Shown here piece after piece: positions 14,687-37,913 of a DNA stretch of 64,000 nucleotides. The DNA comes from Anaerolineae bacterium (lineage in GTDB: Bacteria > Chloroflexota > Anaerolineae > B4-G1 > SLSP01). Below the pieces are notes generated by a model that was given only the letters and a program-made list of their open reading frames with translations, made no database searches and was not told where the DNA came from. Location: positions 36,952 through 100,951 of the forward strand of contig JBNGDL010000007.1 in the NCBI GenBank assembly GCA_049975205.1, in the 5' to 3' direction. Position 1 is the first letter of the stretch, and every line of letters begins with the position of its first letter. Position numbers and translations under genes: made by a program.

Positions 14687-16261
14687 TCACGGCTCGTCGC
14701 CGGTCGGCGGTGCGACGTCGAGCAGCGTCTGCTGGCCGAAGGGTGTCCCTGGCGCAACCCCGGTCACCCTGACGAGGGTCCCGATGTCGGCCCAGTTGTA
14801 GAGGGTTTCGGCGTCCCCGATGTCCAGAATGATGCAGCCGTAGGAAGCCGGATATCCCAGAACCCCCTTTGAAAGCCGGAGTCCGTAGGACGTGATTGGC
14901 AGCTCGTGGATGCCGTTGTAGAAATCCTCGCGCTCCTCGTAGAAAGCCATGAAATACGGCATATCCAGACTCCAACGCTGGGCAAAGGCCATCTCCTCCT
15001 TGAAGAGGATTTGGAACTGCCCCGCGAGCGTCGGTGTTGTAGAGATGCCGCTGGAGACTCGGAACTCATAGACTAACGTCTCCTCTTCGTAGGCCCGTAG
15101 GGTCTGGGTGGGGAGATCGATCTCGATGCGTTTTCCTCGGACCAGTGGATGTGGGAAGAGGATGTCGATTGAGGGAACCGTGATCACTTGCCCCACATCG
15201 ATGAGGCCTGGGTCGACCTCCGGGTTGACCCGCTCTAGCTGCCATTGGGAGAACCCGTGGTTGTAGGCAATATCATAGAAGGTGTCGCCTAGCTGGACAA
15301 TGTAGGTCTTGGGCGGATGGCGCACCTCAGCGTAGACGGGGTTGTTTGCATTCGATCGTATAGCATCTGCCACCCGCGCGCTCGTCGCCTCCACGTCAAG
15401 AAGGCGTTCCTCGCCGAGTTGAGGGGCGATCGTCCCGACCCAAGTACGGATGGCATTGGTATCATATCTGAGGCGGAACCCGCCCTCATCCTGCACGACG
15501 CGCAGCCACTGGGCGATCTGATCTCGCTCAGCGGTGAACTCCGCGTAGTAACCTCCTTGCTCTGGATCCCCCGTCAGGGGATCCTGGACGACGAGCGTCA
15601 GAGACTCAGACAGCCTTGCCTCGATCTGGCTCTGTGTCGGCTCTGCCGTGGCTATGGCGGGCGGCACAACATCAAGCGTCAACTCGACACGCCCGGCGCC
15701 CTCACGTAACGCGGTCAGAGTCTGAGCGGTAGCTGCCTCGACGTCCAATTCCTGACCGTCATGTGCAGGCCCACTGCGCACCTGGCCTCCCAGGATGGTG
15801 AGACTAGCATTACGAGGCGCTATCTTGACAGCCGCCGCGATTTCCTCGATGTAGGCTTGGACGCGTGCCGGATCGGCTGGTGAGATGGGTACGGTGATCG
15901 AGACCTGCGATGGTCTGAGGACGAGGATTGCTCCTAACCACCACGGTCGGTCACGACCGATCTGGTAGGCGGCGTCGACCGCTGCATCGAGGTCGTAGCT
16001 CTGACCAGCCCTGGCCCACGTCAGGTCCCATACCTCCTCGCCGGCGACGATGGTCACCGCGAGATCCTTGGGCACGGGGAGTGCGGAGGCTAGGCGCGAA
16101 CGGGCCGCTGCGACGGTTAGGTCGCCAACGTCTATGCCCTGAATTGACACACCGGGGTAGATTCGATCCCGGTAGTGCGCGCCCACCGACACAGCTGCGC
16201 CCAGAGCGCCAAGTACGGCGAGGACCAATAAGCCTGCTGCGATCCTGCGAAGGGTCTGCAC
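14687..16261 (-). CDS. L,D-transpeptidase (YkuD domain) with LysM and N-terminal PG-binding-like region, membrane anchored
   Basis: 524 aa with a GTG start. N-terminal TM (IAAGLLVLAVLGALGAAVSV). LysM (YIVQLGDTFYDIAYNHGFSQWQLERVNP). YkuD catalytic region (NGIHELP ... ASYGCIILD). Confidence 0.8.
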   Translation of the reverse strand: MQTLRRIAAGLLVLAVLGALGAAVSVGAHYRDRIYPGVSIQGIDVGDLTVAAARSRLASALPVPKDLAVTIVAGEEVWDLTWARAGQSYDLDAAVDAAYQIGRDRPWWLGAILVLRPSQVSITVPISPADPARVQAYIEEIAAAVKIAPRNASLTILGGQVRSGPAHDGQELDVEAATAQTLTALREGAGRVELTLDVVPPAIATAEPTQSQIEARLSESLTLVVQDPLTGDPEQGGYYAEFTAERDQIAQWLRVVQDEGGFRLRYDTNAIRTWVGTIAPQLGEERLLDVEATSARVADAIRSNANNPVYAEVRHPPKTYIVQLGDTFYDIAYNHGFSQWQLERVNPEVDPGLIDVGQVITVPSIDILFPHPLVRGKRIEIDLPTQTLRAYEEETLVYEFRVSSGISTTPTLAGQFQILFKEEMAFAQRWSLDMPYFMAFYEEREDFYNGIHELPITSYGLRLSKGVLGYPASYGCIILDIGDAETLYNWADIGTLVRVTGVAPGTPFGQQTLLDVAPPTGDEP

Positions 16262-22491: not shown

Positions 22492-22644
22492 AGGGTACCG
22501 TCTTCCCGGAGTTCCTTCGCCCCGACGACCCGCGGCTCACGTCGGCTCCGCTGTGACACTCAGGGAGATCGGTGATCGCGTGGCCGAAACAGGGTGCTCA
22601 GAGGCACATCAAGGCACCGCAACTCGAAAGCAAGGTGCGAGATC

Positions 22645-24243
22645 GTGGCGACGGAACGACCTGCGTCTCGTCTGCATCCGCTGTCTGCCGGCACCCTCCA
22701 TGAGCATTATCAGATACTGGAGGGATGGGAGCTGGCGGAATCGGCCTACTATGATGCGGTAGACCTCATCTGCACGCAATCTGAGTGCGGAACGCGTCAT
22801 GGCTCCGTACCAGGAGATGGGCTTTGCCTTCGCTGCCGGACACCCCTTGAGACGGTGCTGATCCACGAACGGGGTCCTATTCCGGGAGATCCGCTTTCCG
22901 CTGAGAAAATCGACCTGCTGTTGCGGCTGGGACAGGCGGGCCACCCGCATGTGCTTACCCAACGTGAAATTCTCTCGTCGCCGCGAGCTACTTGGGCTGT
23001 TGGGGTGCACCCGGGTCACTGGGGTGTCCTGGTTCGCGGGCGTCGTCCCCGGAGCTCGGAGGACGCTGTGGGCATCGTGGCCCAGGTGGCTAAGGCCATG
23101 ACCTATTTGCACCAGCAAGGCCTGGCCTTGGCGGGGCCAGAGCCCTCAGATTGGGAGGCGACGGTAGAGAAGGTGATCACGCTTGGGGGCGCGGGTGCTG
23201 TGAAGCTGGCTGACCTGAGTGGATGCACCGTGCTGCGCGGGGCGTCGCGATCACAGCAGATCGCCGGTGACGTAGCTTTCCTGGGCCGCCTGTTGTTGTA
23301 CCTGACATCAGATGTGGAAGGCATACCCTCACATCCCTCGCTGGCAGCCCCTGCGCTGTGCCCCTACGTCGCGCAGGCTCTGCAGGGGGCGTATGCTACC
23401 CCAATGGCCCTTTTGAACGATCTCACCTCGACGCCGGCACCGGCTTTGACGGCGCGACCGCTGACCCCGAACCACGGTCAGGCCTCAGATCCGGGCCGGA
23501 AGCACAGCCACAACGAGGATGCTGTCGTCACCTTTACCTACAACAAGGAGCTTCAGGGGCGCTCCGTGCCCATCGGCTTCTACTTGGTGGCGGACGGCAT
23601 GGGAGGCCATGCGGCCGGCGACGTTGCGAGCCGGACGGTCAACGAGATTGTGACAGAGTGGGTCCTGAGGACGAAGGTCTTGCCAGACCTTGCGGGCAGG
23701 ACACGCCTGCTGGGCAGCGACGGTCCGGCGGAGGAGCTGCTGACACAAGCGGTCAAGGCCGCAAACGCGGCCCTGGTTCGACAGGCCAAGGCTTCAGGGA
23801 GCGATCTGGGATCGACGGTGACCGCCGCGTTGATCCTCGGCAACTGCGCTACGATCGTGAATGTGGGTGACAGCCGCACCTACCTACTGCGCGATGGGGT
23901 TCTGAAGCAGATTACCGAGGACCATTCTCTCGTTGCCAGGCTGGTCGATGCGCAGATCATAGAGCCCGATCAAGTGCGCAGCCATCCCCAGCGCAACCAG
24001 ATCTATCGAAGCCTAGGCCATCACGAGGAAGTCGCGGTTGACACCTTCGACCTTGTCCTCCGGCGCCACGATCGCCTGATTCTCTGTTCTGACGGATTGT
24101 GGGAGATGGTCCCGGACGCGCGGATTCAGCAGATCGTTGAGGAGTCCCGAAGCCCACAGCAGGCCTGCTATGCCCTCGTCGCGACAGCCAATGAGGCCGG
24201 TGGCGATGACAACATCTCGGTGGTTATTGTGGCTATGGAGTAG
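22645..24243 (+). CDS. Zinc-ribbon pseudokinase fused to PP2C-family Ser/Thr phosphatase
   Basis: ORF opens at 22594 (GTG). The GTG at 22645 has AAGGTG 7 nt upstream. The N-terminal kinase-like fold lacks a G-loop and has a CxxxC...CxxC insert (CTQSEC...CLRC). The catalytic loop is replaced by LALAGPEPSDW. The C-terminal PP2C is intact: GRKHSHNEDAVV, ADGMGGHAAGDVAS, VGDSRTYLL, CSDGLWEMV, GGDDNISVVIV. Confidence 0.75.
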   Translation: MATERPASRLHPLSAGTLHEHYQILEGWELAESAYYDAVDLICTQSECGTRHGSVPGDGLCLRCRTPLETVLIHERGPIPGDPLSAEKIDLLLRLGQAGHPHVLTQREILSSPRATWAVGVHPGHWGVLVRGRRPRSSEDAVGIVAQVAKAMTYLHQQGLALAGPEPSDWEATVEKVITLGGAGAVKLADLSGCTVLRGASRSQQIAGDVAFLGRLLLYLTSDVEGIPSHPSLAAPALCPYVAQALQGAYATPMALLNDLTSTPAPALTARPLTPNHGQASDPGRKHSHNEDAVVTFTYNKELQGRSVPIGFYLVADGMGGHAAGDVASRTVNEIVTEWVLRTKVLPDLAGRTRLLGSDGPAEELLTQAVKAANAALVRQAKASGSDLGSTVTAALILGNCATIVNVGDSRTYLLRDGVLKQITEDHSLVARLVDAQIIEPDQVRSHPQRNQIYRSLGHHEEVAVDTFDLVLRRHDRLILCSDGLWEMVPDARIQQIVEESRSPQQACYALVATANEAGGDDNISVVIVAME

Positions 24244-24330: not shown

Positions 24331-26208
24331 ATGCTGCAACCTAATACGCAACTTCAAAACCGGTATCTCATCCGCCGTCGCATTGGGGGAGGCGGGATGG
24401 GGACTGTGTACATCGCCGAAGACATGCGGCTACAGGGACGTCAGTGTGCCGTGAAGGAGATGTCACCTAGCGCCCTTGCGCCACAGGATCGAGAGTGGTC
24501 CATCGAGGCCTTCCGGCAGGAGGCTCAGATGCTCGCCCAGCTTCGCCATCCCGGCTTGACCGCCGTGACCGACTTCTTTGGGGAGGGTGGCAACTGGTAC
24601 CTCGTCATGGATTACGTCGAGGGCAAGACGCTGGCCACGAAGCTCTCGGAGGCACCAGAGGGGCGTTTCCCGGTCCAGGAGGCTCTGCGCATCGTTCGAC
24701 AGCTCTGTGACGTCCTCGAGTATCTTCACAACCAGCCATCACAGGTCATATTCCGCGATCTGAAGCCTGGGAATGTCATGGTCACCGCTGAGGGCCAGGT
24801 GAAGCTGATCGACTTCGGCATCGCGCGCTTCTTTAAGCCGGGCAAACAAGCCGACACCGCGCTACTCGGAACGCCGGGATATGCTGCGCCGGAGCAATAT
24901 GGTGGTCTGGGTCAGAGTGGGCCACAGACGGATATCTACAGCCTCGGCGTGCTCCTGTGTCACATGGTGACAGGCTTTGATCCCGTCAGTGCCATGAGTC
25001 CGTTCCCTATCCCTGACCCGACCTCGTTGATGCCGGGTATACCCCCGCGCATTGCCGCCACTATCGTTCGAGCGACCCAGTTGCGCCCGGAGCTCCGGTA
25101 TCGTAGTATCGCCGAGATGCGCGACGACCTCTTCCCACCCTCGTTCGTTCCCTATAAACCGCCTACGGAACGCCAGAGGACGCAGGTCATGCAGCCTTCC
25201 GCGCCGAGTGAGGCCGGTTCTGATCGGAAGCGGTTGCGGATGGCGCTGCTAGCGGGAGGGGCAGGTATCGCGTTGCTCGGCATCTGTGTTGGCCTTGGGG
25301 TGTTCGTCGTCTGGCCTTATCTCAGGCCCGACGCGACGGTCACGCCGACCGTGACGCCGACCCAAGCCGCTGCCACAGCCACATTCGAGGCCACGGCCAC
25401 GGTGGGTGCCACCGCCTCAGAGGAGTCGGTAACGCCAACAGAAACGCCGGCTGAGGTCGACACGGATACACCGCCGCCTCCCGTGGTAAAGGTTGATCAG
25501 GATAGCCTTGGGCTCTCGGTTCAGGGGAGGGCGCTGGCCGTCACCACGATCGGCTACGAGGACGGCGCCGACATTGTCGTGGTCGGGAGCATTCAGGGGG
25601 ATCAAGCTGGCACGCGAGACTTGGTCCAGGCACTGATCGACCACTACCGCTCGAATGAGGGCGACATACCGATGGGTGTAATGTACCACTTCGTGCCTTC
25701 CATCAACCCTGATGGCCTTACCTTGAACTCCCGCTACAACGCGCGCGACGTAGACCTCAACCGCAATTGGGGCTCTAGTGATTGGCTGCGCGACGCCGCC
25801 GTGCCGGGATACCCTGAGGGGAAGCCCGACGCGGGAGGCGCGGCACCCTTCTCGGAGCCCGAGACCCAGGCGCTGAGGGACTATCTGCTCTCTCTAAGGT
25901 CGTCTTCCGATAGGCTGCGCGTGATGATCCTACACTCCTCAGTGCGTCGTGACAAAGGTGAGGTCTATCCGGGCGGAGCCACGGCGCTGGACGCAGCACA
26001 GTCCTACGCCAACGTGACCGGCTATGACGTCGAGTATGCCTGGGCGGAGTATGTGACCTCCGGCGAGGCTGTGACCTGGTGTGAGGAGCAGTCTATCGTG
26101 TCCATTGATGTCGTCATTCCCGGATCGCAGACGCCGAGCACGAAGGTCATTGGAGATCGGACGCTGCTGCAGATCACGCTTGATGCCGTCAGGACCCTCG
26201 GTCAGTAA
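24331..26208 (+). CDS. Ser/Thr protein kinase - TM - extracellular M14 carboxypeptidase-like domain (zinc ligands substituted)
   Basis: 625 aa. Kinase motifs GGGGMGTVYIAED, CAVKEM, FRDLKPGNVMV, IDFGIARFF, GTPGYAAPEQ. One TM (LLAGGAGIALLGICVGLGVFVVW), then a T/P-rich linker. M14 blocks are VVVGSIQGDQAGT (in place of HxxE), SINPDGL, DVDLNRNWG and FSEPETQAL. Confidence 0.8.
   Translation: MLQPNTQLQNRYLIRRRIGGGGMGTVYIAEDMRLQGRQCAVKEMSPSALAPQDREWSIEAFRQEAQMLAQLRHPGLTAVTDFFGEGGNWYLVMDYVEGKTLATKLSEAPEGRFPVQEALRIVRQLCDVLEYLHNQPSQVIFRDLKPGNVMVTAEGQVKLIDFGIARFFKPGKQADTALLGTPGYAAPEQYGGLGQSGPQTDIYSLGVLLCHMVTGFDPVSAMSPFPIPDPTSLMPGIPPRIAATIVRATQLRPELRYRSIAEMRDDLFPPSFVPYKPPTERQRTQVMQPSAPSEAGSDRKRLRMALLAGGAGIALLGICVGLGVFVVWPYLRPDATVTPTVTPTQAAATATFEATATVGATASEESVTPTETPAEVDTDTPPPPVVKVDQDSLGLSVQGRALAVTTIGYEDGADIVVVGSIQGDQAGTRDLVQALIDHYRSNEGDIPMGVMYHFVPSINPDGLTLNSRYNARDVDLNRNWGSSDWLRDAAVPGYPEGKPDAGGAAPFSEPETQALRDYLLSLRSSSDRLRVMILHSSVRRDKGEVYPGGATALDAAQSYANVTGYDVEYAWAEYVTSGEAVTWCEEQSIVSIDVVIPGSQTPSTKVIGDRTLLQITLDAVRTLGQ
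25330..25482 (+). repeat. Low-complexity Thr/Pro/Ala-rich extracellular linker-coding tract (kinase)
   Basis: Encodes DATVTPTVTPTQAAATATFEATATVGATASEESVTPTETPAEVDTDTPPPP, between the TM helix and the M14-like domain. Confidence 0.6.
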
Positions 26209-26219
26209 GGAGCGAGTCT

Positions 26220-27092
26220 ATGCGATGCCCTAACTGCGGCCAAGAGAACCGCGTGGGAGCGAGGTTCTGCGGGCGGTGCGGTCAGCCCCTATCGACTAAG
26301 CCGCCTCTGGAACTCACGGAGGCTGCTTCTCGTTGCCCAGTCTGCAACAGCATCCTCAAACCGGATGCGCGCTTCTGCCCGCAGTGCGGCACCGCTATCT
26401 CCGCTCCTCGAGATGGGGTTCCAGCGCCGACGCCGCCGGCCCACACCGTGAGGGCCGGTGAGAGAGCTCTGCCGACGGTCACGCCCGCACCAGCGATCGT
26501 GAGCCCTCAAGCTGCGCCCGAGGCCAGTCGGGTGGAGGAACAGTCACGAGCTCGCGTGCGGCGCCGCCCTGCCTGGCTCGTCGGGGTCGTGATGGCGCTG
26601 CTCTCAGGGGCTGTGTTTTTCTGCCTCGTGATGGGGCTCGCTCTTCTGCCAGCCTTTGGGAGGTCGGTGCCGCCGTCGCCGGAGGTCGATCCCTCGCAAG
26701 CCGATTTGACGATCCTGGTGAGGGAGGCGTACATCAGCGATATGCTCGCCCAGGCGCTGCCGGAGGGGGTACAGGGGGATGCTGTTGTGGATGTGCAGCC
26801 CGGAAACAAGCTCGTCACGACGATCGGCTTCGATCTCCTGTTCATCGACCTTGAGGTGATTGTCCACGCCGGGATCGGGGTTGAGGGTGGTGAGATCCAG
26901 GTCTGGGTGGACCGCGTGGAGACCGGCGGACACGACATCCTTGAACTGCTCAACGTTAATCAGGTCGATCTCGGGCAGAACATCACAGGCGCGATCCAAC
27001 AGGGACTCGAAGATGAACTGGGCCCAGGTTCGCGGTTGCTGACGATTGTCACAGACGACACCAACGTGATCCTGACGGCGCGATGGGAGTAG
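26220..27092 (+). CDS. Double zinc-ribbon - TM - extracytoplasmic domain protein
   Basis: 290 aa, AAGGAG RBS. MRCPNCGQENRVGARFCGRCG and CPVCNSILKPDARFCPQCG. Pro-rich linker, TM (WLVGVVMALLSGAVFFCLVMGLALL) and an ecto-domain of about 150 aa, possibly DUF2993/LmeA-like (weak). Confidence 0.6.
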   Translation: MRCPNCGQENRVGARFCGRCGQPLSTKPPLELTEAASRCPVCNSILKPDARFCPQCGTAISAPRDGVPAPTPPAHTVRAGERALPTVTPAPAIVSPQAAPEASRVEEQSRARVRRRPAWLVGVVMALLSGAVFFCLVMGLALLPAFGRSVPPSPEVDPSQADLTILVREAYISDMLAQALPEGVQGDAVVDVQPGNKLVTTIGFDLLFIDLEVIVHAGIGVEGGEIQVWVDRVETGGHDILELLNVNQVDLGQNITGAIQQGLEDELGPGSRLLTIVTDDTNVILTARWE

Positions 27093-27717: not shown

Positions 27718-30528
27718 ATGATTCGCTGTGAGCAGTGCGGCGCACTGAATCGCTCCGAGGCGCATTACTGCACGAAGTGCGGATCAGCGCTGGGGGCTGT
27801 GGCACCGGCTGATCCGCCCTCACTGTGTCCTCACTGCGGGGTCCCGCTGCGCCCAGAATCGCGTTTCTGCCCTGCCTGCGGTCGAACCGTCGCAGGCGTG
27901 ACGGTGGCCCAGGATGGGAGTATCCACGAGCAGAAGATCGTTGTTCGTTGGCCTGGCGGCGAGTCCGAGGAGCACGCTCTCGACAAGTCGGTGGTACACA
28001 TCGGGCGGGCACCGGACAACGACATCGTCCTCAACTTCCCCACGGTCTCGGGACACCATCTCGCACTTGACGTCACGCCAAGTGACGTGAGGGTCACGGA
28101 CCTCAACAGCACGAACGGGACGATGCTGAAAGGACGCTTGATCACACCCCGTTCTCCGCATCCTTGGAGAGAGGGCGAGACCCTGCGTGTGGGCGATGTC
28201 TGGGGTAACTCCATCAGCATTGTGCTGAAGGGCGCGGCGGCCCCGGCTCTCCATACCTATCCGCTGGGTATGCACCGCCTCGCGCAGCACGCCCGCATCC
28301 TGATTGGGCGCGATCCGGCGAGCCAGATCACGCTTGATCATCCCACGGTCTCGCGCCGCCACGCCGAGATCGTGCGACAGGAGGGCGGGCACGCCATCCG
28401 CGATCTGGGCAGCGTCAATGGCACCTTTGTGAACGGGCAGCGGGTCCTAGATGTCGTCCGGCTGCAGGAGGGCGACGTCATCCAGTTGGGACCGTACAAG
28501 ATGGTCTACGACGGGGACGCTGACCGGCTCTCGACCTCGGTGAGCCAGGGCCACCGATTGGATGCGATCGGGCTCGGCGTAGAGGTCGGTGGTGGTCGCA
28601 TGATCCTGCAGGACGTCTCGCTCTCCGTACAGGGAGGCGAGTTCGCGGCGCTGGTCGGCGGCAGCGGTGCGGGCAAGAGCACGCTCCTCAAGGCGATGAA
28701 CGGCTTCCGACCCGCGACCCACGGTCGGATGCTGATCGATGGGGAGCTGCTTTATCCAAATCTGGCGGCCTATCGGACCTTGATGGGCTATGTGCCACAG
28801 GATGACATCATCCACAAGACGCTGCCGGTGCGGAGCGCGCTGTGGTACTCGGCGCGGCTACGTCTGCCTGATGCGACGTCGGCCGAGATCGAGGAGCGGA
28901 TCGACCGTGTCCTCGAGTTGGTGGAGCTGACAGCGCACCAGCACAAGCCGGTTCGGGTGCTGAGCGGCGGGCAACGCAAGCGCGTCAGCATCGCGGTGGA
29001 GCTCCTGGCAGATCCCGATCTCCTCTTCCTGGACGAGCCGACCTCCGGATTGGATCCCGGGCTCGAGAAGAAGATGATGTACGATCTCAACCGGCTGGCC
29101 GATCAAGGACGGACGGTGGTGCTGGTCACGCACGCCACCGCGAACATCGAGCAATGCGATCACGTCGGCTTCTTGGAGCGAGGGAACCTCGCCTACTACG
29201 GCCCTCCCAATGAGGCTATCGCCTTCTTCAAGGCAAGAGACTTTGCTGATATCTACCTGAAGCTGTCAGAACCGGTCGACGGTTTCAGAGGAGCTCTTCC
29301 CTCGGAACTGAGGCCCTATTGGGACGCGATTCAGGCGCGACTACCCGAGGAGGCAAGAGGTCAATCGCCTGGGGTCTGTACTGCAGGGCTTCTCTGGGCG
29401 CAACACTACCGCGCAAGCGACCTTCACCAACGTTACGTCGTGAACAGGCAGGCGCGCTTGGACGCAGCTCGGCCTGGGATGGAAGCGGCGCCTGCGCGCC
29501 GCAAGCGGACTCGAGACTCGGTTCTGCGTCAGCTTGTTGTGCTTGTCCGGCGCCAGTTCGATCTGATCCGTCACGACCTGCGCACGCTGTTCATCCTGCT
29601 TTTGATGATGCCGCTCATTGCCGTTTTGTTTATGCTGGTAAGTGACAAGACGGCGTTCGTCGGGGGCGCGGCGACGGAGGCAAGTCTCAAACAGGAGCTT
29701 CTGCAGGCCCTCAATGTGACTCGGGAGGATGATCTGTCCTCCGTGGTGCTCGACGGGGAGGATCTGGAGCGATCTGCCGACTACATGCCCTACGCCGATG
29801 CGAAGACGCTGGTCACCATGCTCGGGCTTGCCTTGACGCAGGCGGGCACCTTCGGGGCCGCCTATGAGATAGTAAAAGAACGCCCGATCTTCCGTCGCGA
29901 ACGGTCCGTCAACCTCCGGGTGGGGGCGTACGTATTGTCCAAGGCTTTGGTGCTCGGCGTCTTTGCGGTCATCCAGGTAGCCAGCGTGCTCGGTGTGCTG
30001 GCGCTGAAGCTGGATCTGGGCATCGATCCTATTCTGGATATCTTTGCCTTCGGCGCCGCGGAGCTCTTCGTGACACTGCTTATCGCGGTTGTCGCCAGCA
30101 TTATGTTCGGCTTGTTCATCTCGGCCGTTGTGCCTAGCCAGGACGTGGTGCTCTACATCATCCTGATCCAGCTCTTTACCCAGATTATCCTCTCGGGCAC
30201 ACTCTTCCCACTGGGGGACAATCCGGCGTCCAAGCTCGTGCCGTCTTACTGGACGATGGATGCGATGGGTGCTACCGTGGACCTGCGGAAGTTGAACGAC
30301 GAGGGCCGGGTCTGCAAGATATGGGAACAGAAGGATGTTCCCACGGCGGAGGGCACGCGGATGACGCAACGGGGGATCGTGTGCGAGACGGCGGCGATCA
30401 AGAACCTAGACCTGCCCTGGAAGCACGACGCGGAGCATCTCTTGACAGCGTGGGGCGCCCTCGGTGCACAGGCCCTGGTTTGGATGGCTGCTACCATGGT
30501 GGTGCAATCGAGAGTCAAAGGCGACTAG
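27718..30528 (+). CDS. ZnR-ZnR-FHA-FHA-ABC ATPase-ABC2 permease fusion (Rv1747-like FHA-regulated ABC exporter)
   Basis: 936 aa. Zn ribbons CEQCGALNRSEAHYCTKCG and CPHCGVPLRPESRFCPACG. FHA1 is VVHIGRAPDNDIVLNFPTVSGHHLAL...NSTNGT. FHA2 is ILIGRDPASQITLDHPTVSRRHAEI...GSVNGT. Walker A GGSGAGKST, signature LSGGQRKR, Walker B LLFLDEPTSGLD. Multi-TM ABC-2-type C-terminal half. Confidence 0.85.
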   Translation: MIRCEQCGALNRSEAHYCTKCGSALGAVAPADPPSLCPHCGVPLRPESRFCPACGRTVAGVTVAQDGSIHEQKIVVRWPGGESEEHALDKSVVHIGRAPDNDIVLNFPTVSGHHLALDVTPSDVRVTDLNSTNGTMLKGRLITPRSPHPWREGETLRVGDVWGNSISIVLKGAAAPALHTYPLGMHRLAQHARILIGRDPASQITLDHPTVSRRHAEIVRQEGGHAIRDLGSVNGTFVNGQRVLDVVRLQEGDVIQLGPYKMVYDGDADRLSTSVSQGHRLDAIGLGVEVGGGRMILQDVSLSVQGGEFAALVGGSGAGKSTLLKAMNGFRPATHGRMLIDGELLYPNLAAYRTLMGYVPQDDIIHKTLPVRSALWYSARLRLPDATSAEIEERIDRVLELVELTAHQHKPVRVLSGGQRKRVSIAVELLADPDLLFLDEPTSGLDPGLEKKMMYDLNRLADQGRTVVLVTHATANIEQCDHVGFLERGNLAYYGPPNEAIAFFKARDFADIYLKLSEPVDGFRGALPSELRPYWDAIQARLPEEARGQSPGVCTAGLLWAQHYRASDLHQRYVVNRQARLDAARPGMEAAPARRKRTRDSVLRQLVVLVRRQFDLIRHDLRTLFILLLMMPLIAVLFMLVSDKTAFVGGAATEASLKQELLQALNVTREDDLSSVVLDGEDLERSADYMPYADAKTLVTMLGLALTQAGTFGAAYEIVKERPIFRRERSVNLRVGAYVLSKALVLGVFAVIQVASVLGVLALKLDLGIDPILDIFAFGAAELFVTLLIAVVASIMFGLFISAVVPSQDVVLYIILIQLFTQIILSGTLFPLGDNPASKLVPSYWTMDAMGATVDLRKLNDEGRVCKIWEQKDVPTAEGTRMTQRGIVCETAAIKNLDLPWKHDAEHLLTAWGALGAQALVWMAATMVVQSRVKGD

Positions 30529-31614: not shown

Positions 31615-33969
31615 ATGCGTGGACAACGACGACGGCTGATTAGGACATTGTTGGTCAGTGGCGGGATTCTATTGGTTCTTGGCATCCTTGTAGGGGTCGC
31701 GCTGCTCACGAATGCGTTTTCGTGGTCTTCCGAGCGGACGCGCCGGGAGCTTCTGGCCGATGGCCCTGGAATCGAGCTGACACCGCCGATAGCGATCGAC
31801 GACCTCGCGGAGGCTTATCCTCAACTGGCTTCCGTGCTGAGTGACCCGGAACTGGCGACGGTGTACAAGGAGTTCGTGGTGGCGTATCAGGAGGGCGGGG
31901 TCGAGGCTGCTTCCGAGCTGGCGAAGAGCCGGGGCTTACTCACCCCCGATGGGCAGCATCTGCGCGTGACGCTTGTCCTCGACACTGACGCGCCACAGCC
32001 GCTCGTTGATCAGTTGGAAGGTGTTGGTGTGGAGGTGGTCAGTGCATTTCGTGATCGTGTCAATATCGCCGTGCCGGTCGCCCTGATCGAGCAGGCGATG
32101 CAATCGGAGGATGTCGATAGCGTCTTCCAGCAACTCACCGAGCTTCAGCACGTGATCGCAGTGCGTTTGCCAGGTCAACGGCAGTCCGACCAGCAGACGG
32201 AGCAGGGCGAGGGGGTCCGCGCGGTTGGCGCGGAAGTTTGGCACCAGGCAGGTTTCACCGGTGCTGGGCTGCGGGTCGGCATACTCGATTTGGGTTTTGC
32301 AGGGTACCGACGCCTCCTGGGGCGTGAGCTTCCTGACAATGTCGAGGTGGAGACTTTCGGATGGATTGACGACAAGGAGGTCCACGGGACTGCCTGTGCC
32401 GAGATTGTGCACGAGCTCGCGCCCGATGCGACCCTATATCTCGCCTGGTATGATGGCAGTGATGCCGCAATGGGGGAGGCTGTCGCATGGCTGCGAGGTC
32501 ATGAAGTCGACATCATCAGCCATTCAGCCGGGAGCGTGCTCAGCCCGCGAGATGGCACGGGTTGGGACGCAGAGTTGGTTGATGAAACTGCCGCGACGGG
32601 TGTGCTTTGGGTAAACTCTGCGGGCAATGAAGCAGATGTCCATCACCGGGCGACCTTCATCGATCAGGACGGTGATGGCTATCATGATTTTGAACTCGAC
32701 ACGTCGCTCCTTCCAATCTACAACGAGGGGGATCTGCGCGTCTTTCTTGTCTGGCACGAAGATTGGGAACGGCCCACCGAGGATCTTGAGCTGTTTGTTT
32801 TCGATGCCGACGGCAACGTGCTGGCCTCCTCTGAAGATCTGCAGGATGGGGGCTTGGGACAGCAACCCGCCGAATGGGTGGTTATGCAGTCCTCGGCGTC
32901 GGTGGTCTATGCTGCCGTCTACGCCTATGATGTCGATCGCGCGATGGGCTTTGATCTTTTTGCGATCGGTCCCGGGGTCGAGATCAAGGACCCGGTCCCG
33001 GCCTATAGCGTAAACTCCCCTGGTGACGCCGTTGGGGCTTTGACCGTCGGGGCAGTGGACTGGGAGGATGACCGCCTCGCCCGCTACAGCTCTCAGGGGC
33101 CGACTACTGACGAGCGCCTGAAGCCCGAGATCTCGGGTCCGACGAGGATTTCGGGCATTACCTATGGGGCCCACGGCTTTGATGGAACGTCGGCGTCGGC
33201 GCCGCACGTGGCCGGTGTGGCTGCACTGGTGTGGCAAGCTTACCCGAGCTACACGCGACAGGAGCTGACCGATCTGCTTCTGACGTCGGCCAAGGATCTG
33301 GGACCGGCCGGGCCTGACACCGGTTACGGGTTTGGACGCCTGCAGCTGCCCCCGCCGCCCAATGCTGCGGCGGTCATCGCCAGCCCCGAAGCGCCCGCCG
33401 ACGAAGCCACTGAGACGCCGACCACAGACGTCACGCCAACGCCGGTCGCCTTTGCATTACCTGCTCCTGAGAATGACACGGATGACCGGCGGCAGAGGCC
33501 TCTCGTCTTAGTGGGGCTTCTCGTGGGAGGCCTGAGCATTGGGGGCACGGGGCTCCTTGCCATCGGCGGCTACCTTCTTCTGAGCGAACTAAGGACCCGG
33601 TCGACGCCATCATCAGAGCCGCCGAGGCCTGCTCCGCCTTTGGCAGTGGCGCCGGCGCGGCCGATGCGGCCTTCAGAGAGGCCCGCCGAGGGGCCCTCGC
33701 TGCCATCCACAGAGCGATGGGAGACAGACCAGGGCGACTTGAGGACGCCGGATGCTCATTCTGCCAAGCGGCCGACATCCAAGTCAGAATCTGAGACACA
33801 CTGTCCTTCCTGCGGGGCTCCGTTGCGATCGGGGGCTCGGTTCTGCCCCGGGTGTGGCACGCGTCTGGCGATCGCTTCGAATCCGGCTTTCTGCCGTCAC
33901 TGTGGTGCCGCGTTGCGAGAGGACAGCCGGTTCTGCCCGAAGTGCGGCCTGCCGGTCGATCGGCGCTGA
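31615..33969 (+). CDS. Membrane-anchored subtilisin-like (S8) serine protease with N-terminal pro-like domain, second TM and cytoplasmic double zinc-ribbon tail
   Basis: 784 aa. N-terminal TM (LLVSGGILLVLGILVGVALL). Catalytic triad contexts VGILDLGF (Asp), HGTACAEIV (His), GTSASAPHVAG (Ser), with oxyanion NSAGNE. TM2 is LVLVGLLVGGLSIGGTGLLAIGGYLLL. Tail motifs CPSCGAPLRSGARFCPGCG and CRHCGAALREDSRFCPKCG. Confidence 0.85.
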   Translation: MRGQRRRLIRTLLVSGGILLVLGILVGVALLTNAFSWSSERTRRELLADGPGIELTPPIAIDDLAEAYPQLASVLSDPELATVYKEFVVAYQEGGVEAASELAKSRGLLTPDGQHLRVTLVLDTDAPQPLVDQLEGVGVEVVSAFRDRVNIAVPVALIEQAMQSEDVDSVFQQLTELQHVIAVRLPGQRQSDQQTEQGEGVRAVGAEVWHQAGFTGAGLRVGILDLGFAGYRRLLGRELPDNVEVETFGWIDDKEVHGTACAEIVHELAPDATLYLAWYDGSDAAMGEAVAWLRGHEVDIISHSAGSVLSPRDGTGWDAELVDETAATGVLWVNSAGNEADVHHRATFIDQDGDGYHDFELDTSLLPIYNEGDLRVFLVWHEDWERPTEDLELFVFDADGNVLASSEDLQDGGLGQQPAEWVVMQSSASVVYAAVYAYDVDRAMGFDLFAIGPGVEIKDPVPAYSVNSPGDAVGALTVGAVDWEDDRLARYSSQGPTTDERLKPEISGPTRISGITYGAHGFDGTSASAPHVAGVAALVWQAYPSYTRQELTDLLLTSAKDLGPAGPDTGYGFGRLQLPPPPNAAAVIASPEAPADEATETPTTDVTPTPVAFALPAPENDTDDRRQRPLVLVGLLVGGLSIGGTGLLAIGGYLLLSELRTRSTPSSEPPRPAPPLAVAPARPMRPSERPAEGPSLPSTERWETDQGDLRTPDAHSAKRPTSKSESETHCPSCGAPLRSGARFCPGCGTRLAIASNPAFCRHCGAALREDSRFCPKCGLPVDRR

Positions 33970-34138: not shown

Positions 34139-35887
34139 TTGGTGCTCTTGGGGCTCTTGTTTGTCTTGACCACCGTCGTCTTGGCAAGGCGACTTCGCAG
34201 ACGACGTGTCTCTTCGAAGACGACGCCGGAGGCAACCTCTGCAGCCGCGACACGCCAGGGTGGGGGGACCAAGCAGCTAGCGGGGACGCCTGAAGCGTCG
34301 CATCCCGATCTAAGCGGCGGCTTTTCAGCACTGGCTGAAGGTACTGTGCTTAACAACCGCTACGTGATACGTGAGGTCCGTGGATCAAGCGGCAGCCACG
34401 CGGTCTACCTGGCTGAGGATCTCTACCCGGTCAAGATGTGTCCGGCATGCCGTGGCGTGGCATCAGACGCGGATGAGATTCGGTGCACATATTGTGGGGC
34501 CGATCTGTCCGAGATCTCCCCAGCTCAGCTCAGGTATCTCGTGCAGGAGCGGGACGATCCTGCGGCGTTCAGCTCTGAAGGCCAGTTACTCCAGCTTGAC
34601 CTGAGGCATCCGGGCCTGTTGCTGCCGGTTGCGGTCTTCGTGGAAGCTCCTCACGGTCCCAAGCGGGCTTATCGTGTTATGCCCGAGTTCTCCCCGCCGC
34701 TTGTGAAGACCGTGCCCGGTCCACGTGACTTGGCCCAGACGCTCTCGTGGGGTGTCTCGTTGGCGAAGGCTCTCGCTTATCTGCATCAGCACGATGTTGC
34801 CCTTGGTTCTGTGGATATCGACCACGTCTCGGTTGATGGCGACAGAGCATGGTGGTCGGGGCTGACCCGCGTCACGATCTTGTCCGCTGAGGAGCGTGCC
34901 TCTATCCGTGAGGCGCACGCCGTCGATGTGCAGAAGCTGGCGACCTTGTTGGTACAGCTGGGGACAGGAAGGGCTAACGCGGCTCTGCCCGAGAGCTGGC
35001 CTGATGCTCTGAACCAGTTGATCACCAAGGCACACCGTGAGCCTGCGAAGGTGAGCGCTGCGGAGTTTGCTGTTATGCTGGAGCACCTGTTGGAACAAGT
35101 GCGGGAGCCTAAGCGCGTGACGCTGGTGGTCGGGCAGTGCACGGATGTGGGTTCCATTCGCTCTGTCAATGAGGATACTCTTCTCTCGGTCGACCTCGGG
35201 GCGATCCATCGCCTGCGAGATCAGGCGGCGGGGCTTTTTCTCGTCGCCGATGGTATGGGTGGGCACGACGCAGGGGATGTGGCCAGCCAGTTGACGGCTC
35301 GGACAATTGGGGAGCTGACAACAGAGGAAGGGACCCGCCCCATTTCCTCCCGTCAGCTGTTCTCCGACCCGGCAGGGTGGCTGTTGACTGCGGTCCGGCA
35401 GGCCAACCAGGCGGTATATGAGGAGCGGATGGCTGCGAAATCTGACATGGGCACGACGCTCGTCGCGGCGCTCGTGATGGGTGCGCGGGCGACAATTGCT
35501 AACGTGGGAGACAGCCGCTGTTATCTGCTCAGCAACCGTGGCATCACCCAGGTCACGGTGGACCACTCGCTGGTGGAGCGGCTGGTGGCGACTGGTCAGA
35601 TCACGCGTGAGGAGGCGGCTGTGCATCCTCAGCGTCACGTCATCTACCGCGTGATCGGCGATAGGCCGGAGGTGGAGATCGATCTCTTCGAGCAACCGAT
35701 GCAGGTCGACGAAGCGTTGTTGCTCTGCTCCGACGGGTTGAGCGGCATGGTGTCTGACGAGACGATCTGGCGGATCTGGATGGCTGCAGCCTCTCCCCAA
35801 GATGCTTGCATCCGCTTGGTCGCGGCTGCGAATAGGGCCGGCGGCGAGGATAACATCACCGCCGTGATCGTTCAAGTGCGGACCTGA
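34139..35887 (+). CDS. Zinc-ribbon pseudokinase fused to PP2C phosphatase (paralog of 22645-24243), possible N-terminal membrane anchor
   Basis: 582 aa from a TTG at 34139; alternative starts are GTG 34142 and GTG 34346. Kinase-like LNNRYVIREV..AVYLAED, insert MCPACRG...RCTYCG, alphaC-like EGQLLQLDLRHPGL. The catalytic loop is replaced by ALGSVDIDHV and there is no DFG. The PP2C is intact: SIRSVNEDTLL, ADGMGGHDAGDVAS, VGDSRCYLL, CSDGLSGMV, GGEDNITAVIV. Confidence 0.75.
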   Translation: MVLLGLLFVLTTVVLARRLRRRRVSSKTTPEATSAAATRQGGGTKQLAGTPEASHPDLSGGFSALAEGTVLNNRYVIREVRGSSGSHAVYLAEDLYPVKMCPACRGVASDADEIRCTYCGADLSEISPAQLRYLVQERDDPAAFSSEGQLLQLDLRHPGLLLPVAVFVEAPHGPKRAYRVMPEFSPPLVKTVPGPRDLAQTLSWGVSLAKALAYLHQHDVALGSVDIDHVSVDGDRAWWSGLTRVTILSAEERASIREAHAVDVQKLATLLVQLGTGRANAALPESWPDALNQLITKAHREPAKVSAAEFAVMLEHLLEQVREPKRVTLVVGQCTDVGSIRSVNEDTLLSVDLGAIHRLRDQAAGLFLVADGMGGHDAGDVASQLTARTIGELTTEEGTRPISSRQLFSDPAGWLLTAVRQANQAVYEERMAAKSDMGTTLVAALVMGARATIANVGDSRCYLLSNRGITQVTVDHSLVERLVATGQITREEAAVHPQRHVIYRVIGDRPEVEIDLFEQPMQVDEALLLCSDGLSGMVSDETIWRIWMAAASPQDACIRLVAAANRAGGEDNITAVIVQVRT

Positions 35888-35930
35888 CCGCCGGTGCTGA
35901 ATCAAGACAGAAGACATGGAGGCAGTTGAG

Positions 35931-37913
35931 ATGCGCATACGGCGTGTGCTGTCGACCTTCATCTGTCTCGCATCCCTGCTGTCGGCGATGCCGACGGCAG
36001 CACAGGAGGGCGTGCCCGAGCCTCCGGTCGTGGACATCCTTGGGACGCCGGATACCCGCTCCCAGCCCCCAAACGCTCATCTCTATGTGTCCGTCGTAGA
36101 CCGGCTCACAGGCCGTGCGTTTCTCGATCTGGAGCCAGCGAATTTCGCGGCCCAGGTCTCTGAGGTAGACGTTGAGACCGCAGTCGAGATAGACACGACC
36201 GGACTGGCTGTGGTCATGGTGATCGACCGTGGCGGGATAGCCCAGCGGGGTGATCCCAGGATCGGTCGGAGCGTTGACCTTGCATCCGCGTTGCTCGAGA
36301 TGCTGACGGTGGACGGGACTGCCACGGCGGATATGGTGGCGCTCATCGGCATCCGCGGCGAGGAACAAGGCGGACTCACGCCAGTCATCAACTTCACAGA
36401 CTACGATCCGAACGTAATCAGCAACGCCTTTGATGGGCTGCGTACAGAGGTTGTGAACGAAACGACGCCCCTTTATGACGGGCTCGACAGAGCGATAGCG
36501 TGGATCACCGATAACCCCGATCCTCAGATACGCGAGAAACTGGTACATCGACGGCGGATCATCCTGGTCTTCTCCGACGGGATAGATCGGGACTTCAGTG
36601 ACGAGTCCCACGAGACTCTGATCGTCAATCAAGCTGCGGAGAACGATATCCTCATCTATGCTGTCCAAATGAGTGACCGGGGTCGGACGGGTGATTCCAT
36701 AAGCCTAAGTGCCATGGCCACACAGACTCAGGGAGCGCTGTTCGTGCACAGTCCGGAGAGTCACGAGGAGGTCCTCGCCCGTCTGCAGGATATCACGACC
36801 CAACGGGAGGCCTACCGCCTGACCTTTCCTCTGATCCGGCCTCAAGGCCTGTACCAGGTGGAGATTCAGGTGCTTGATACGCCAGGTGGGTCAGCTTCGG
36901 ATGCTGAGAGCATCACGTCTCACCTGGAGAGGCCAGGTATCGCGTGGGTCGCACCTCCGGAGCTTCAGATTGTCGTGCCCTATTCCGAGACAGCGCTGGG
37001 GTTCCTGCCCACATCGATCCCGTTGAGCGTCCAGATGAGTTTCAAGGATGGCGCTTCGCGAGAGCCGGAGCAGGTCTCGTACTTCGCGAACGAGCAGCGC
37101 ATTGGTCTTACAAGTGCCGGTCCGGACTACGCTTTTGAATGGGACGTCGCGGATCTCGAGACGCCGGCGACCGAGCCGGTCACGCGAACCTTCACCCTGA
37201 TTGCTCGCGCGACCGATCCCTATCTCGAGGAGCCTATTGCGACGGAGCCGCTGGACATCCAGATTACGTGGGAGCAGAAAGAGGAGACGCTGAAGACGGT
37301 CACAGAGGATGTCGCCAGCAGCGTGGCGCTGAACTGGTGGGTCCTCCCACTCTTCGGCGTGCTGGCAGTGGGTATTGTCGTGCTCGCCGTGCTGCTGATT
37401 CGGACCCGAGGTCAGGTGGCGAAGCAGGTCGTGAAGGGTACCACGGCTGTCGTGAGAGGGGTCACACAACGGTTAGGCGCTGGCGGTGGGTTGCCCGCTG
37501 CACGGGGGAAGCTTGTCGTGACGCGAGGACCTCGCACGGGGACTGAGTTCCGTCTGGCAACGAGCTTGGTGCGGGTCGGGCGAGATCCTGAGTACAGCGA
37601 CTTCGCACTGCACGACCAATACGTGTCCAACCCTCACTTCTCCGTGATCGAGGAGGGAGGGCAGTTCTATATCCGGGATGAGGAGAGTACCAACCAGACC
37701 CGTCTTAATGGCGCAGTCGTCCCTGCGAATCAGCGGATCGTTCTGCCCCCGGATGCCGTCATCGATGCAGGCCAGACGCGTCTCCAGTTTCGTCGGTTGG
37801 GTGGCGAGACGCGGCTCATCAGCGCTCGCGCACAGAAGACGGAGCGAGGCAGCTCGGGGCAAGACGAGGCCAATGCGCCAACGCAGCGAGCAGGCCCAGG
37901 TTTCCGCCCGTAG
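35931..37913 (+). CDS. Secreted vWA-like domain - TM - cytoplasmic FHA domain protein
   Basis: ATG at 35931 has GGAGG 8 nt upstream; the ORF opens at 35916. Signal peptide MRIRRVLSTFICLASLLSAMPTAAQ. vWA-like strands VVMVIDRGGIA (MIDAS DxSxS not conserved) and IILVFSDGIDRDF. TM is WWVLPLFGVLAVGIVVLAVLLI. FHA is LVRVGRDPEYSDFALHDQYVSNPHFSV...ESTNQTRLNG. Confidence 0.75.
   Translation: MRIRRVLSTFICLASLLSAMPTAAQEGVPEPPVVDILGTPDTRSQPPNAHLYVSVVDRLTGRAFLDLEPANFAAQVSEVDVETAVEIDTTGLAVVMVIDRGGIAQRGDPRIGRSVDLASALLEMLTVDGTATADMVALIGIRGEEQGGLTPVINFTDYDPNVISNAFDGLRTEVVNETTPLYDGLDRAIAWITDNPDPQIREKLVHRRRIILVFSDGIDRDFSDESHETLIVNQAAENDILIYAVQMSDRGRTGDSISLSAMATQTQGALFVHSPESHEEVLARLQDITTQREAYRLTFPLIRPQGLYQVEIQVLDTPGGSASDAESITSHLERPGIAWVAPPELQIVVPYSETALGFLPTSIPLSVQMSFKDGASREPEQVSYFANEQRIGLTSAGPDYAFEWDVADLETPATEPVTRTFTLIARATDPYLEEPIATEPLDIQITWEQKEETLKTVTEDVASSVALNWWVLPLFGVLAVGIVVLAVLLIRTRGQVAKQVVKGTTAVVRGVTQRLGAGGGLPAARGKLVVTRGPRTGTEFRLATSLVRVGRDPEYSDFALHDQYVSNPHFSVIEEGGQFYIRDEESTNQTRLNGAVVPANQRIVLPPDAVIDAGQTRLQFRRLGGETRLISARAQKTERGSSGQDEANAPTQRAGPGFRP

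Follow-up and report, generated by a model that had tools for sequence, protein, structure and literature searches.

The window analysed here, a 64,000-nucleotide stretch of a contig from an Anaerolineae bacterium, carries two paralogous genes on the forward strand, ORF1 and ORF2 (open reading frames 1 and 2), each predicted to encode a pseudokinase domain with a four-cysteine zinc ribbon set into it and, C-terminal to that domain, a PP2C phosphatase. ORF1 lies at 22645–24243, with an alternative GTG start at 22594 that would give a protein of 549 aa, and its residues are numbered from 22594 throughout. The GTG at 22645 is in frame and has AAGG about 7 nt upstream; because residues 1–22 are disordered in the AlphaFold2 model, either start is possible. 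ORF2 lies at 34139–35887 (582 aa) and begins at one of the TTG/GTG codons at 34139–34181. A first-pass annotation of the window had described the second gene as a copy of the same architecture, and both Pfam and the sequence itself show the matching layout: PP2C (PF00481) was found at aa 305–546 of ORF1 (E 2e-16, 60.9 bits) and at aa 345–580 of ORF2 (E 1e-14, 55.3 bits), against a cut-off of 20.3 bits, with no Pfam match in the N-terminal ~300 residues of ORF1 or before aa 345 of ORF2. The N-terminal half that Pfam leaves unrecognised amounts in each protein to about 260 residues and precedes the PP2C domain. While the PP2C halves of the two proteins are 47% identical, identity between their N-terminal domains is only 24–28%, and BLASTP does not align these halves at all; the two genes represent two old, anciently diverged subfamilies of a single family.

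The identity of the N-terminal half is the central question. Pfam reported no protein kinase domain (Pkinase, PF00069) in ORF1 or ORF2 at E ≤ 0.01, and BLASTP of the ORF1 N-terminal half against the kinase encoded next to it (24331–26208) was not significant. Every one of the 19 matches that this half obtained at E ≤ 10 in a sequence search of the PDB is nonetheless a protein kinase, the best being PknG (7mxj, E 0.0095) over the region from YLHQQG to DLS; the ORF2 half, searched alone, had no PDB sequence match. Since BLASTP failed on these halves, profiles were needed. With a four-sequence N-half profile, HMMER recovered 192 proteins at E ≤ 1e-3 (54 at E ≤ 1e-10) from 1.84 billion representative proteins, and a Pfam scan of 149 of these recognised PP2C in about 104 and a protein kinase in 41. 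When 36 family N-domains (alignment A5) were compared by hhalign with the domain of the window kinase (24331–25200), the two aligned over 234 columns with a probability of 98.7% and E 4e-16. A 13-sequence profile of the ORF2 type (A6), from which members that matched a kinase directly had been kept out, aligned with the same kinase at 96.6% and E 6e-10, which settles the fold of the ORF2 half despite its lack of a PDB sequence match. Finally, a hidden Markov model (HMM) of 86 family N-domains, built with no kinase included, matched residues 2–278 of the window kinase (E 4.5e-23) and every kinase of related loci (E 1e-17 to 1e-35), these E-values being for the small set of open reading frames in the fetched loci. 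A few family members, for example P0032, do reach Pfam Pkinase.

Structure prediction points the same way. AlphaFold2 modelled full-length ORF1 with a mean predicted local distance difference test score (pLDDT) of 91.8 and a predicted template modelling score (pTM) of 0.85, and the N-domain alone with values of 91.1 and 0.88. Foldseek matched the N-domain model to over 1900 PDB chains at E ≤ 1e-3; kinases or pseudokinases made up the whole of the top 50 (E ~1e-8, TM 0.45–0.57, ~290 columns), including RET, DAPK1, PAK1, PIM1, PknG, Staphylococcus aureus Stk1/PknB, the MviN pseudokinase 3otv, and TRIB2; the full-length model returned only PP2C structures among its top 50. Taken together, profiles and models indicate that the N-terminal half has a Hanks-type bilobal kinase fold, with β1–β5 and αC followed by αE, αF, αH, and αI, colinear with known kinases. 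This is what the first-pass annotation had proposed from short motifs, and the profile, AlphaFold, and Foldseek comparisons that it had suggested as a check bear out both the fold and the catalytic losses. A chance resemblance to kinases was rejected on the same high significance of the profile and structure comparisons.

The domain occupies approximately aa 34–280 of ORF1 (22693–23433 on the forward strand, from hhalign, AlphaFold2, and Foldseek) and 34310–35140 of ORF2 (forward strand, from the ORF2-type profile and the family HMM). We derived its anatomy from an alignment with seven true kinases together with the secondary structure of the N-domain model. In the N-lobe, β1 (HYQI in ORF1) is followed by a turn without a glycine loop, β2 (AYYDAVD), the four-cysteine ribbon, β3 (VLIHER), αC, the HP motif of β4, and β5; in the C-lobe, αE ends in YLH and is followed by a degenerate catalytic loop—including a small extra helix in ORF1—and by β7, β8 (ending in ADLS), αF, αH, and αI. 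About 20 residues comprising the activation segment and APE motif are missing, such that αF comes directly after β8, and αG is missing as well. The motifs that had been quoted for ORF1 are all where they were placed: HYQIL at aa 38–42, YLHQQG at aa 171–176, LALAGPEPSDW at aa 177–187, ADLS at aa 206–209, and the cysteine pairs CTQSEC and CLRC at nt 22771–22788 and 22825–22836. The kinase alignment likewise upholds the reported lack of a glycine-rich loop. The proposed N-lobe start of the form L..RY.I fits ORF2, which has RYVI, and not ORF1, which reads L.EHYQI.

Position by position, the catalytic apparatus has broken down in both copies. The VAIK lysine of β3 is replaced by His91 in ORF1 (VLIHER, 22855–22872, forward strand) and by Gln in ORF2 (YLVQER, from 34535, forward strand), and across the 86 family domains this position is Arg in 25, His in 22, and Lys in 17. 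The glutamate immediately after it (Glu92 of ORF1 at 22867–22869, Glu137 of ORF2 at 34547–34549) is conserved in 72 of the 86, more than any former catalytic residue. Following the end of αE, the ORF1 loop LALAGPEPSDW stands in place of HRDLKPxN (YLHQQG and loop together at 23104–23154, forward strand), and ORF2 has YLHQHD-VALGSVDI (34778–34819, forward strand); the HRD aspartate thereby becomes Gly181 in ORF1 and Ser in ORF2 (Asp in 14/86), and the catalytic asparagine becomes Lys and His, respectively (Asn in 11/86). At the DFG motif, ORF1 reads ADLS (23209–23220, forward strand), in which the aspartate (D207) is kept and Phe and Gly are gone; in ORF2, WSGLT (from 34853, forward strand) covers the preceding strand and the motif itself, GLT aligning with DFG. 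The earlier description of DFG as surviving only in the form DLS thus holds for ORF1, whereas ORF2 has lost the aspartate too. Family-wide, this position is Asp in 47 domains and Asn in 17. ORF2 accordingly lacks the glycine loop, Lys, HRD Asp, Asn, DFG Asp, and activation segment with APE. The structural core is retained, with the αE-end Leu present in 82 of 86 members and the His in 76, the αF Asp in 69, and the HP motif of β4 kept. No member (0/86) keeps the triad of Lys, HRD Asp, and DFG Asp. The loss of catalytic residues suggested by the first-pass annotation thus stands for both copies on a proper alignment with true kinases, and by its sequence the domain falls within the definition of a pseudokinase in ORF1 and ORF2 alike.

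Alignment and model agree with the earlier placement of the four-cysteine ribbon as an N-lobe insert and locate it in the β2–β3 turn. In ORF1, it comprises C60, C65, C78, and C81 (22771–22836, forward strand); in ORF2, it comprises CPAC (34439–34450) and CTYC (34484–34495), on the same strand and within the pseudokinase domain. The first knuckle of ORF1, previously written as CxxxC, is in fact Cx4C, a lengthening by two residues that only 7 of 86 members share, the family norm being CxxC. The insert is 25–35 residues long, its cysteine columns hold Cys in 67–77 of the 86 members, at least four Cys fall within it in 70 of 86, and it is absent from 9 of 86. In the 36-sequence alignment, three of the cysteines are invariant and the fourth is at least 90% conserved. 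The N-domain model has short β elements here, and the ribbon columns of the family profile cross-match the DZR ribbons of the protein at 38007–38939; Pfam Zn_ribbon and DZR gave no match in ORF1 or ORF2. The insert appears to be a DZR-type ribbon—two Cys-x(2–4)-Cys knuckles on β-hairpins 10–20 residues apart—for which zinc binding is predicted.

The C-terminal half, by comparison, keeps its catalytic signature. The PP2C/PPM domain of ORF1 (23464–24243, forward strand) contains HNED (from 23509), DGMGGH (from 23593), GDSR (from 23866), SDG (from 24085), and GGDDN (from 24199), and that of ORF2 (35120–35887, forward strand) contains VNED, DGMGGH, GDSR, SDG, and GGEDN. The ORF1 domain matches mycobacterial PstP (1txo) with phmmer E 1e-33 and, by Foldseek, with E 7.5e-23 and TMt 0.88. 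In an alignment with PstP, the acidic residues that bind metal in motifs I, II, VIII, and XI are present in both proteins, as is the Asp of GDSR, so the claim that all metal-binding motifs are retained extends to both copies. On these residues, the half is predicted to be a live PstP-like Ser/Thr phosphatase. The linker between pseudokinase and PP2C is short (~12 residues) and conserved, and in view of this linker and the full-length pTM of 0.85 the two domains may be rigidly coupled.

The fusion is shared by a sizeable family. In an HMM scan, the N-domain is directly followed by PP2C in 108 of 154 proteins, that is, in at least 108 cluster representatives, confirming that homologs with the same fusion exist. 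The earlier suggestion that the architecture is a selected design rather than decay is well founded, given that at least 108 representatives share it and that 0 of 86 keep the triad; gene decay was rejected as an explanation, with intact reading frames and conservation across at least 108 cluster representatives. A word-indexed homologue search returned three proteins with a single sequence and 15 with an alignment, and a genome-locus search with a 4-sequence alignment returned three loci. Two family copies occur in one locus in the window and in L010. Members are labelled in databases only as "PP2C domain-containing", "SpoIIE family protein phosphatase", or "PrpC", and their named source organisms are Chloroflexota or Anaerolineae metagenome-assembled genomes throughout; judging by these organism names, this is a conserved Chloroflexota family.

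Ahead of the pseudokinase, 53 of the 86 members carry an extra CxxC...CxxC ribbon, and 13, including ORF2, have a hydrophobic N-terminal stretch instead. In ORF2, the leader LVLLGLLFVLTTVVLARRLRRRR forms a hydrophobic helix followed by RRLRRRR (34139–34207, forward strand). In P0011, P0024, P0051, and P0055, as in ORF2, the hydrophobic stretch lies at the extreme N-terminus and is followed by an Arg-rich run, a recurrence that argues that the ORF2 leader is genuine. From its sequence, the helix is likely a membrane anchor, with the remainder of the protein cytoplasmic. The N-terminal ribbon and the hydrophobic segment are rarely found together: the ribbon pattern is matched by just 2 of the 13, where the in-lobe ribbon may be what matches. 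This near-exclusivity suggests that the extra ribbon serves localisation. One further protein, P0058 (600 aa), has no PP2C. Its single chain unites a zinc ribbon with two kinase-like domains: one is an active kinase (GHGGFG, VALKE, HRDVKPAN, DFG), the other a pseudokinase of the present zinc-ribbon type (RLKET, HRRIRAEN, NFG). As a natural fusion, it provides a Rosetta-stone hint that active kinase and pseudokinase domains work together.

We then considered the genes around the family. An active Hanks-type Ser/Thr kinase (24331–26208, forward strand; Pfam Pkinase E 7e-44) begins 88 bp downstream of ORF1; the window yielded no second active kinase of this kind, and this one is the likely partner or target. 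Its other parts are a transmembrane segment and an ectodomain of the M14 type, related to the murein peptide amidase MpaA (~25450–26208; 5hxd, E 9e-7). In the alignment with 3l2n, an M14 peptidase, the ectodomain has QGDQ (near 25585–25600) where zinc is bound by HxxE, and it keeps the NRNW substrate motif; it looks like a dead peptidase that might serve as a muropeptide sensor, the role played by PASTA domains in PknB. The orthologue of this kinase in L001 has a PD40 β-propeller in place of the M14 ectodomain. Following the kinase are a double-zinc-ribbon protein (26220–27092) and a protein (27718–30528, forward strand) in which Pfam recognises a double zinc ribbon, two FHA domains, an ABC ATPase, and an ABC-2 membrane domain, an architecture like that of Rv1747. 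This transporter is a probable phospho-regulated component of the module. An S8 protease (subtilase) with a C-terminal double zinc ribbon (31615–33969) lies before ORF2, and directly downstream of ORF2 are a vWA protein with a C-terminal FHA domain (35916–37913, forward strand), a protein with three zinc ribbons and an FHA domain (38007–38939, forward strand), and, in the same gene run, a calcineurin-like metallophosphoesterase (38940–40028). The protease and the metallophosphoesterase may be further effectors or, in the latter case, a second phosphatase of the module. Overall, this part of the window is a signalling gene cluster of the vWA–Ser/Thr kinase–FHA–PP2C type.

Comparable arrangements were found at nine independent loci from other assemblies (L001, L003, L004, and L006 to L011). 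All nine have an active kinase on the same strand within ~6 kb of the family gene, mostly adjacent to it; seven have FHA genes, six have vWA genes, and three (L003, L004, and L009) also have a gene for the transporter with two FHA domains. In L006 and L010, too, a vWA–FHA gene comes after the family gene. DZR-type ribbons recur at 26220–27092, 27718–27890, 33790–33969, and 38007–38450 in the window and in many genes of L003–L011, on nearly every class of module protein—kinases, FHA proteins, the ABC transporter, the S8 protease, an FtsK-like ATPase, and the PP2Cs. The ribbons have the appearance of a common tag by which module proteins are assembled or localised.

What might a dead kinase domain do on a phosphatase? 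The plant protein KAPP, of the same design as DRA0334 of Deinococcus radiodurans, joins an FHA domain that interacts with kinases (KI-FHA) to PP2C. DRA0334 itself is encoded in the operon DRA0331–0334, which combines vWA, Ser/Thr kinase, FHA, and PP2C components, and its N-terminal KI-FHA domain was experimentally shown to dock on kinases and to give specificity (bioRxiv 10.64898/2026.01.23.701218). ORF1 and ORF2 resemble these proteins in being PP2Cs with an N-terminal non-catalytic module that would dock on kinases and confer specificity, and the cluster of vWA, Ser/Thr kinase, and FHA genes is DRA0334-like; they differ in that a dead kinase domain with a ribbon takes the place of FHA, and in that docking, experimental in DRA0334, is here inferred. 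Pfam found no FHA match in ORF1 or ORF2, and membership of the KAPP type was rejected on the lack of this domain.

We consider the best explanation, with a probability of roughly 60%, to be that these proteins are active PstP-like PP2Cs joined to a pseudokinase that docks on the kinase or its partners to confer specificity. A docking or allosteric role of this domain is suggested by the adjacency to kinases, by the P0058 fusion, and by the KI-FHA–PP2C analogy. Under such a scheme, the kinase at 24331–26208 would phosphorylate Thr sites on itself and on module proteins, with the transporter bearing two FHA domains, the vWA–FHA protein, and the zinc-ribbon FHA protein as candidate substrates, whose FHA domains would read the marks; the pseudokinase–PP2C proteins would erase them. 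Specificity would come from the dead kinase domain, whose kinase-type surfaces could dock on the active kinase or its partners and so place PP2C at the correct phospho-sites, the pseudokinase occupying the slot that the KI-FHA domain has in KAPP and DRA0334. Localisation of the enzyme would fall to the N-terminal module, which in most members is an additional zinc ribbon and in ORF2 the likely membrane anchor.

Several observations weigh against this explanation. The deleted activation segment and αG are surfaces used in many kinase–kinase and kinase–substrate contacts, the P0058 fusion is a single cluster, and no FHA or vWA genes were found in the examined sequence of L001 and L011. Furthermore, the former pocket is not random in composition: the β3 position is Arg, His, or Lys in 64 of 86 members, the DFG position is Asp or Asn in 64, and the post-β3 Glu is kept in 72. 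The pseudokinase may therefore bind a nucleotide or another ligand, and a purely passive docking role is not assured. These pocket residues also count in favour of an intramolecular switch, in which the domain would mainly be an allosteric regulator or sensor for its own PP2C in place of finding a kinase, and would be triggered by ligand or metal binding, by the redox state of the four cysteines, or by dimerisation, in the manner of the N-terminal domains of RsbU, RsbP, and SpoIIE. The modelled full-length pTM and the short conserved linker would suit the fixed domain interface of such a switch, a Cys4 module sits on the N-lobe much as the rubredoxin domain does in PknG (itself among the structural matches), and regulation of PP2C by N-terminal domains is well established (PMC8080068, PMC12143880). 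The missing glycine loop and the complete absence of the ribbon from 9 of 86 members fit it poorly, however, and it leaves the strict adjacency to active kinases unexplained. We hold the switch to be possible at well below even odds; it is compatible with docking and does not exclude it.

Other accounts carry less weight. The pseudokinase, or a Thr-rich linker ahead of it, could be a substrate of the neighbouring kinases that, when phosphorylated, recruits the FHA proteins of the locus as a phospho-scaffold, with PP2C then resetting the assembly. FHA genes in the window and in seven of the nine other loci are consistent with this, as are the Ser/Thr-rich pre-domain linker of ORF2, which contains TKQL (an FHA motif of the pT-x-x-L type), and the mycobacterial precedent of the MviN pseudokinase recruiting FhaA (PMC12599244), MviN (3otv) being among the structural matches. 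Yet no Thr was found to be conserved family-wide, a linker ahead of the domain is almost lacking in ORF1, and the deletion has removed the activation loop, where phosphate is usually accepted, making the scaffold an unlikely explanation. An atypical active kinase, with catalytic residues that have migrated as in WNK and hence a bifunctional kinase/phosphatase, would draw on the DFG Asp of ORF1, the HRD of P0032, the β3 Lys of 17 of 86 members, and the fusions of active kinase and PP2C that exist in Pseudomonas (PMC1262709, PMC12088040). Glycine loop and catalytic Asn are both missing, as are the activation segment and the P+1/APE region; this account is very improbable, and it was rejected on the finding that none of the 86 members keeps the triad. 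That the N-terminal half is no real kinase-like domain, arising from chance resemblance or a decaying gene, might be read from the lack of Pfam matches, the non-significant BLASTP comparison with the neighbouring kinase, and the absence of a PDB match for the ORF2 half; set against highly significant profile and structure comparisons and intact frames in at least 108 cluster representatives, it deserves next to no credence.

A more ambitious version of the docking proposal joins several claims: that the domain is an eighth, undescribed family of bacterial Hanks-type pseudokinases, that these are the first prokaryotic fusions of a dead kinase to a PPM phosphatase, and that the pseudokinase pairs with the adjacent active kinase. 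Pairing would be as in HER3–EGFR, STRAD–LKB1, or JH2–JH1 of the JAKs, allosteric control of the kinase and its resetting by dephosphorylation would lie in one polypeptide, and the Cys4 ribbon would be an assembly or redox-sensitive element common to the other zinc-ribbon proteins of the locus. As a whole, we regard this combination as tentative and rather doubtful.

Seven bacterial pseudokinase families have been described—ActPs1–3 (MviN included), GLW, CP1, DYD, and DLHK—all collected via Pfam PF00069, with partner domains that include COG3899 for CP1 and the MviN flippase for ActPs3; ActPs3 (MviN) lacks the activation loop, and ActPs1 lacks αG (PMC12599244; bioRxiv 10.1101/2025.01.12.632604). 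ORF1 and ORF2 share with them a Hanks-type fold with degraded VAIK, HRD, and DFG motifs, and the working partners of MviN are a kinase, a protein with an FHA domain, and a PP2C. None of the seven, however, is described with a phosphatase fusion or an N-lobe ribbon, and neither PP2C nor zinc is mentioned for them in the two reports; the present proteins are set apart by these descriptions, and PF00069 misses them. In the known fusions of PP2C and kinase from Pseudomonas and Deinococcus, PP2C is N-terminal and the kinase is Pfam-recognisable and presumed active (PMC1262709; PMC12088040). These also unite a Hanks-type kinase fold and PP2C in one polypeptide, but in ORF1 and ORF2 the order is reversed and the kinase is dead. 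The kinetoplastid "kinatases", proposed scaffolds in which pseudokinase domains are combined with leucine-rich repeats and a dual-specificity phosphatase (PMC2175518), similarly pair dead kinase domains with a live phosphatase; they are eukaryotic, with a dual-specificity phosphatase in place of PPM and a different domain set and origin.

Further parallels concern single components. The PknF/Rv1747/PstP and PknB/FhaA/MviN/PstP modules of mycobacteria, where Rv1747 is regulated by PknF, resemble the window in their PstP-like PP2C, in the Rv1747-like transporter with two FHA domains beside a kinase, and in cell-wall-related surroundings (PMC8339232; PMC6554272). They differ in that PstP is transmembrane-anchored without a kinase-like domain, and in that the window transporter and several neighbours bear extra double ribbons. 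PknG (7q52, 7mxj), among the best matches in both sequence and structure, also has a Cys4 metal-binding module with the kinase N-lobe, but there the rubredoxin module precedes an active kinase, whereas here a dead domain carries the ribbon in its β2–β3 turn. A survey of bacterial PP2Cs published in 2025 recorded zf-ribbon/DZR with PP2C in Chloroflexota, and Pkinase with PP2C mainly in Pseudomonadota; given the former record, the present proteins were probably counted there with their kinase-like domain unseen. The family is not described in the two bacterial pseudokinase surveys or in this PP2C survey, and the searchable literature yielded no described bacterial pseudokinase–PP2C fusion. While the parts and the module are of known kinds, their combination—a kinase fold invisible to Pfam, with a ribbon insert, N-terminal to PP2C, in a conserved family—appears to be undescribed.

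Bacterial pseudokinases are few and hardly studied, and how a small number of bacterial PP2Cs choose substrates among many kinases is an open question, to which this family would offer a simple answer: specificity by kinase mimicry. As a compact two-domain system, for which models are already very confident, it is well suited to structural work. It also exposes a blind spot of surveys, since searches that start from Pfam Pkinase matches miss these proteins. More broadly, with its kinase bearing an apparently dead MpaA-like sensor domain, its Rv1747-like transporter, vWA–FHA proteins, and many zinc-ribbon proteins, the module resembles the PknB/PstP/FhaA circuit that serves the cell envelope in actinobacteria, and may be its equivalent in Chloroflexota.

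Some additional features of these loci are worth recording. A small conserved protein (149–165 aa) is encoded directly after ORF1-type genes in four loci (L001 2748–3236, L003 11578–12042, L004 11914–12363, and L011 11761–12258). Besides a transmembrane helix and a linker rich in Ser, Thr, and Pro, it contains cysteine in a C-terminal domain of LysM-like appearance (GLYxVCRRYC...). It has no homologue in the window, where the kinase directly follows ORF1. In two loci (L006 459–9176 and L011 16055–20392), the module adjoins type VII secretion-like genes, comprising an FtsK/SpoIIIE (EssC-like) ATPase, WXG100 proteins, and a YukD–FHA fusion, and the EssC-like ATPase of L011 bears a double zinc ribbon. 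In the window, the module is bordered by cell-envelope genes, which fit a role in cell-wall signalling: on one side that for an L,D-transpeptidase containing LysM and PG_binding_4 domains (14687–16261), on the other that for a LytR-CpsA-Psr protein (43536–44924).

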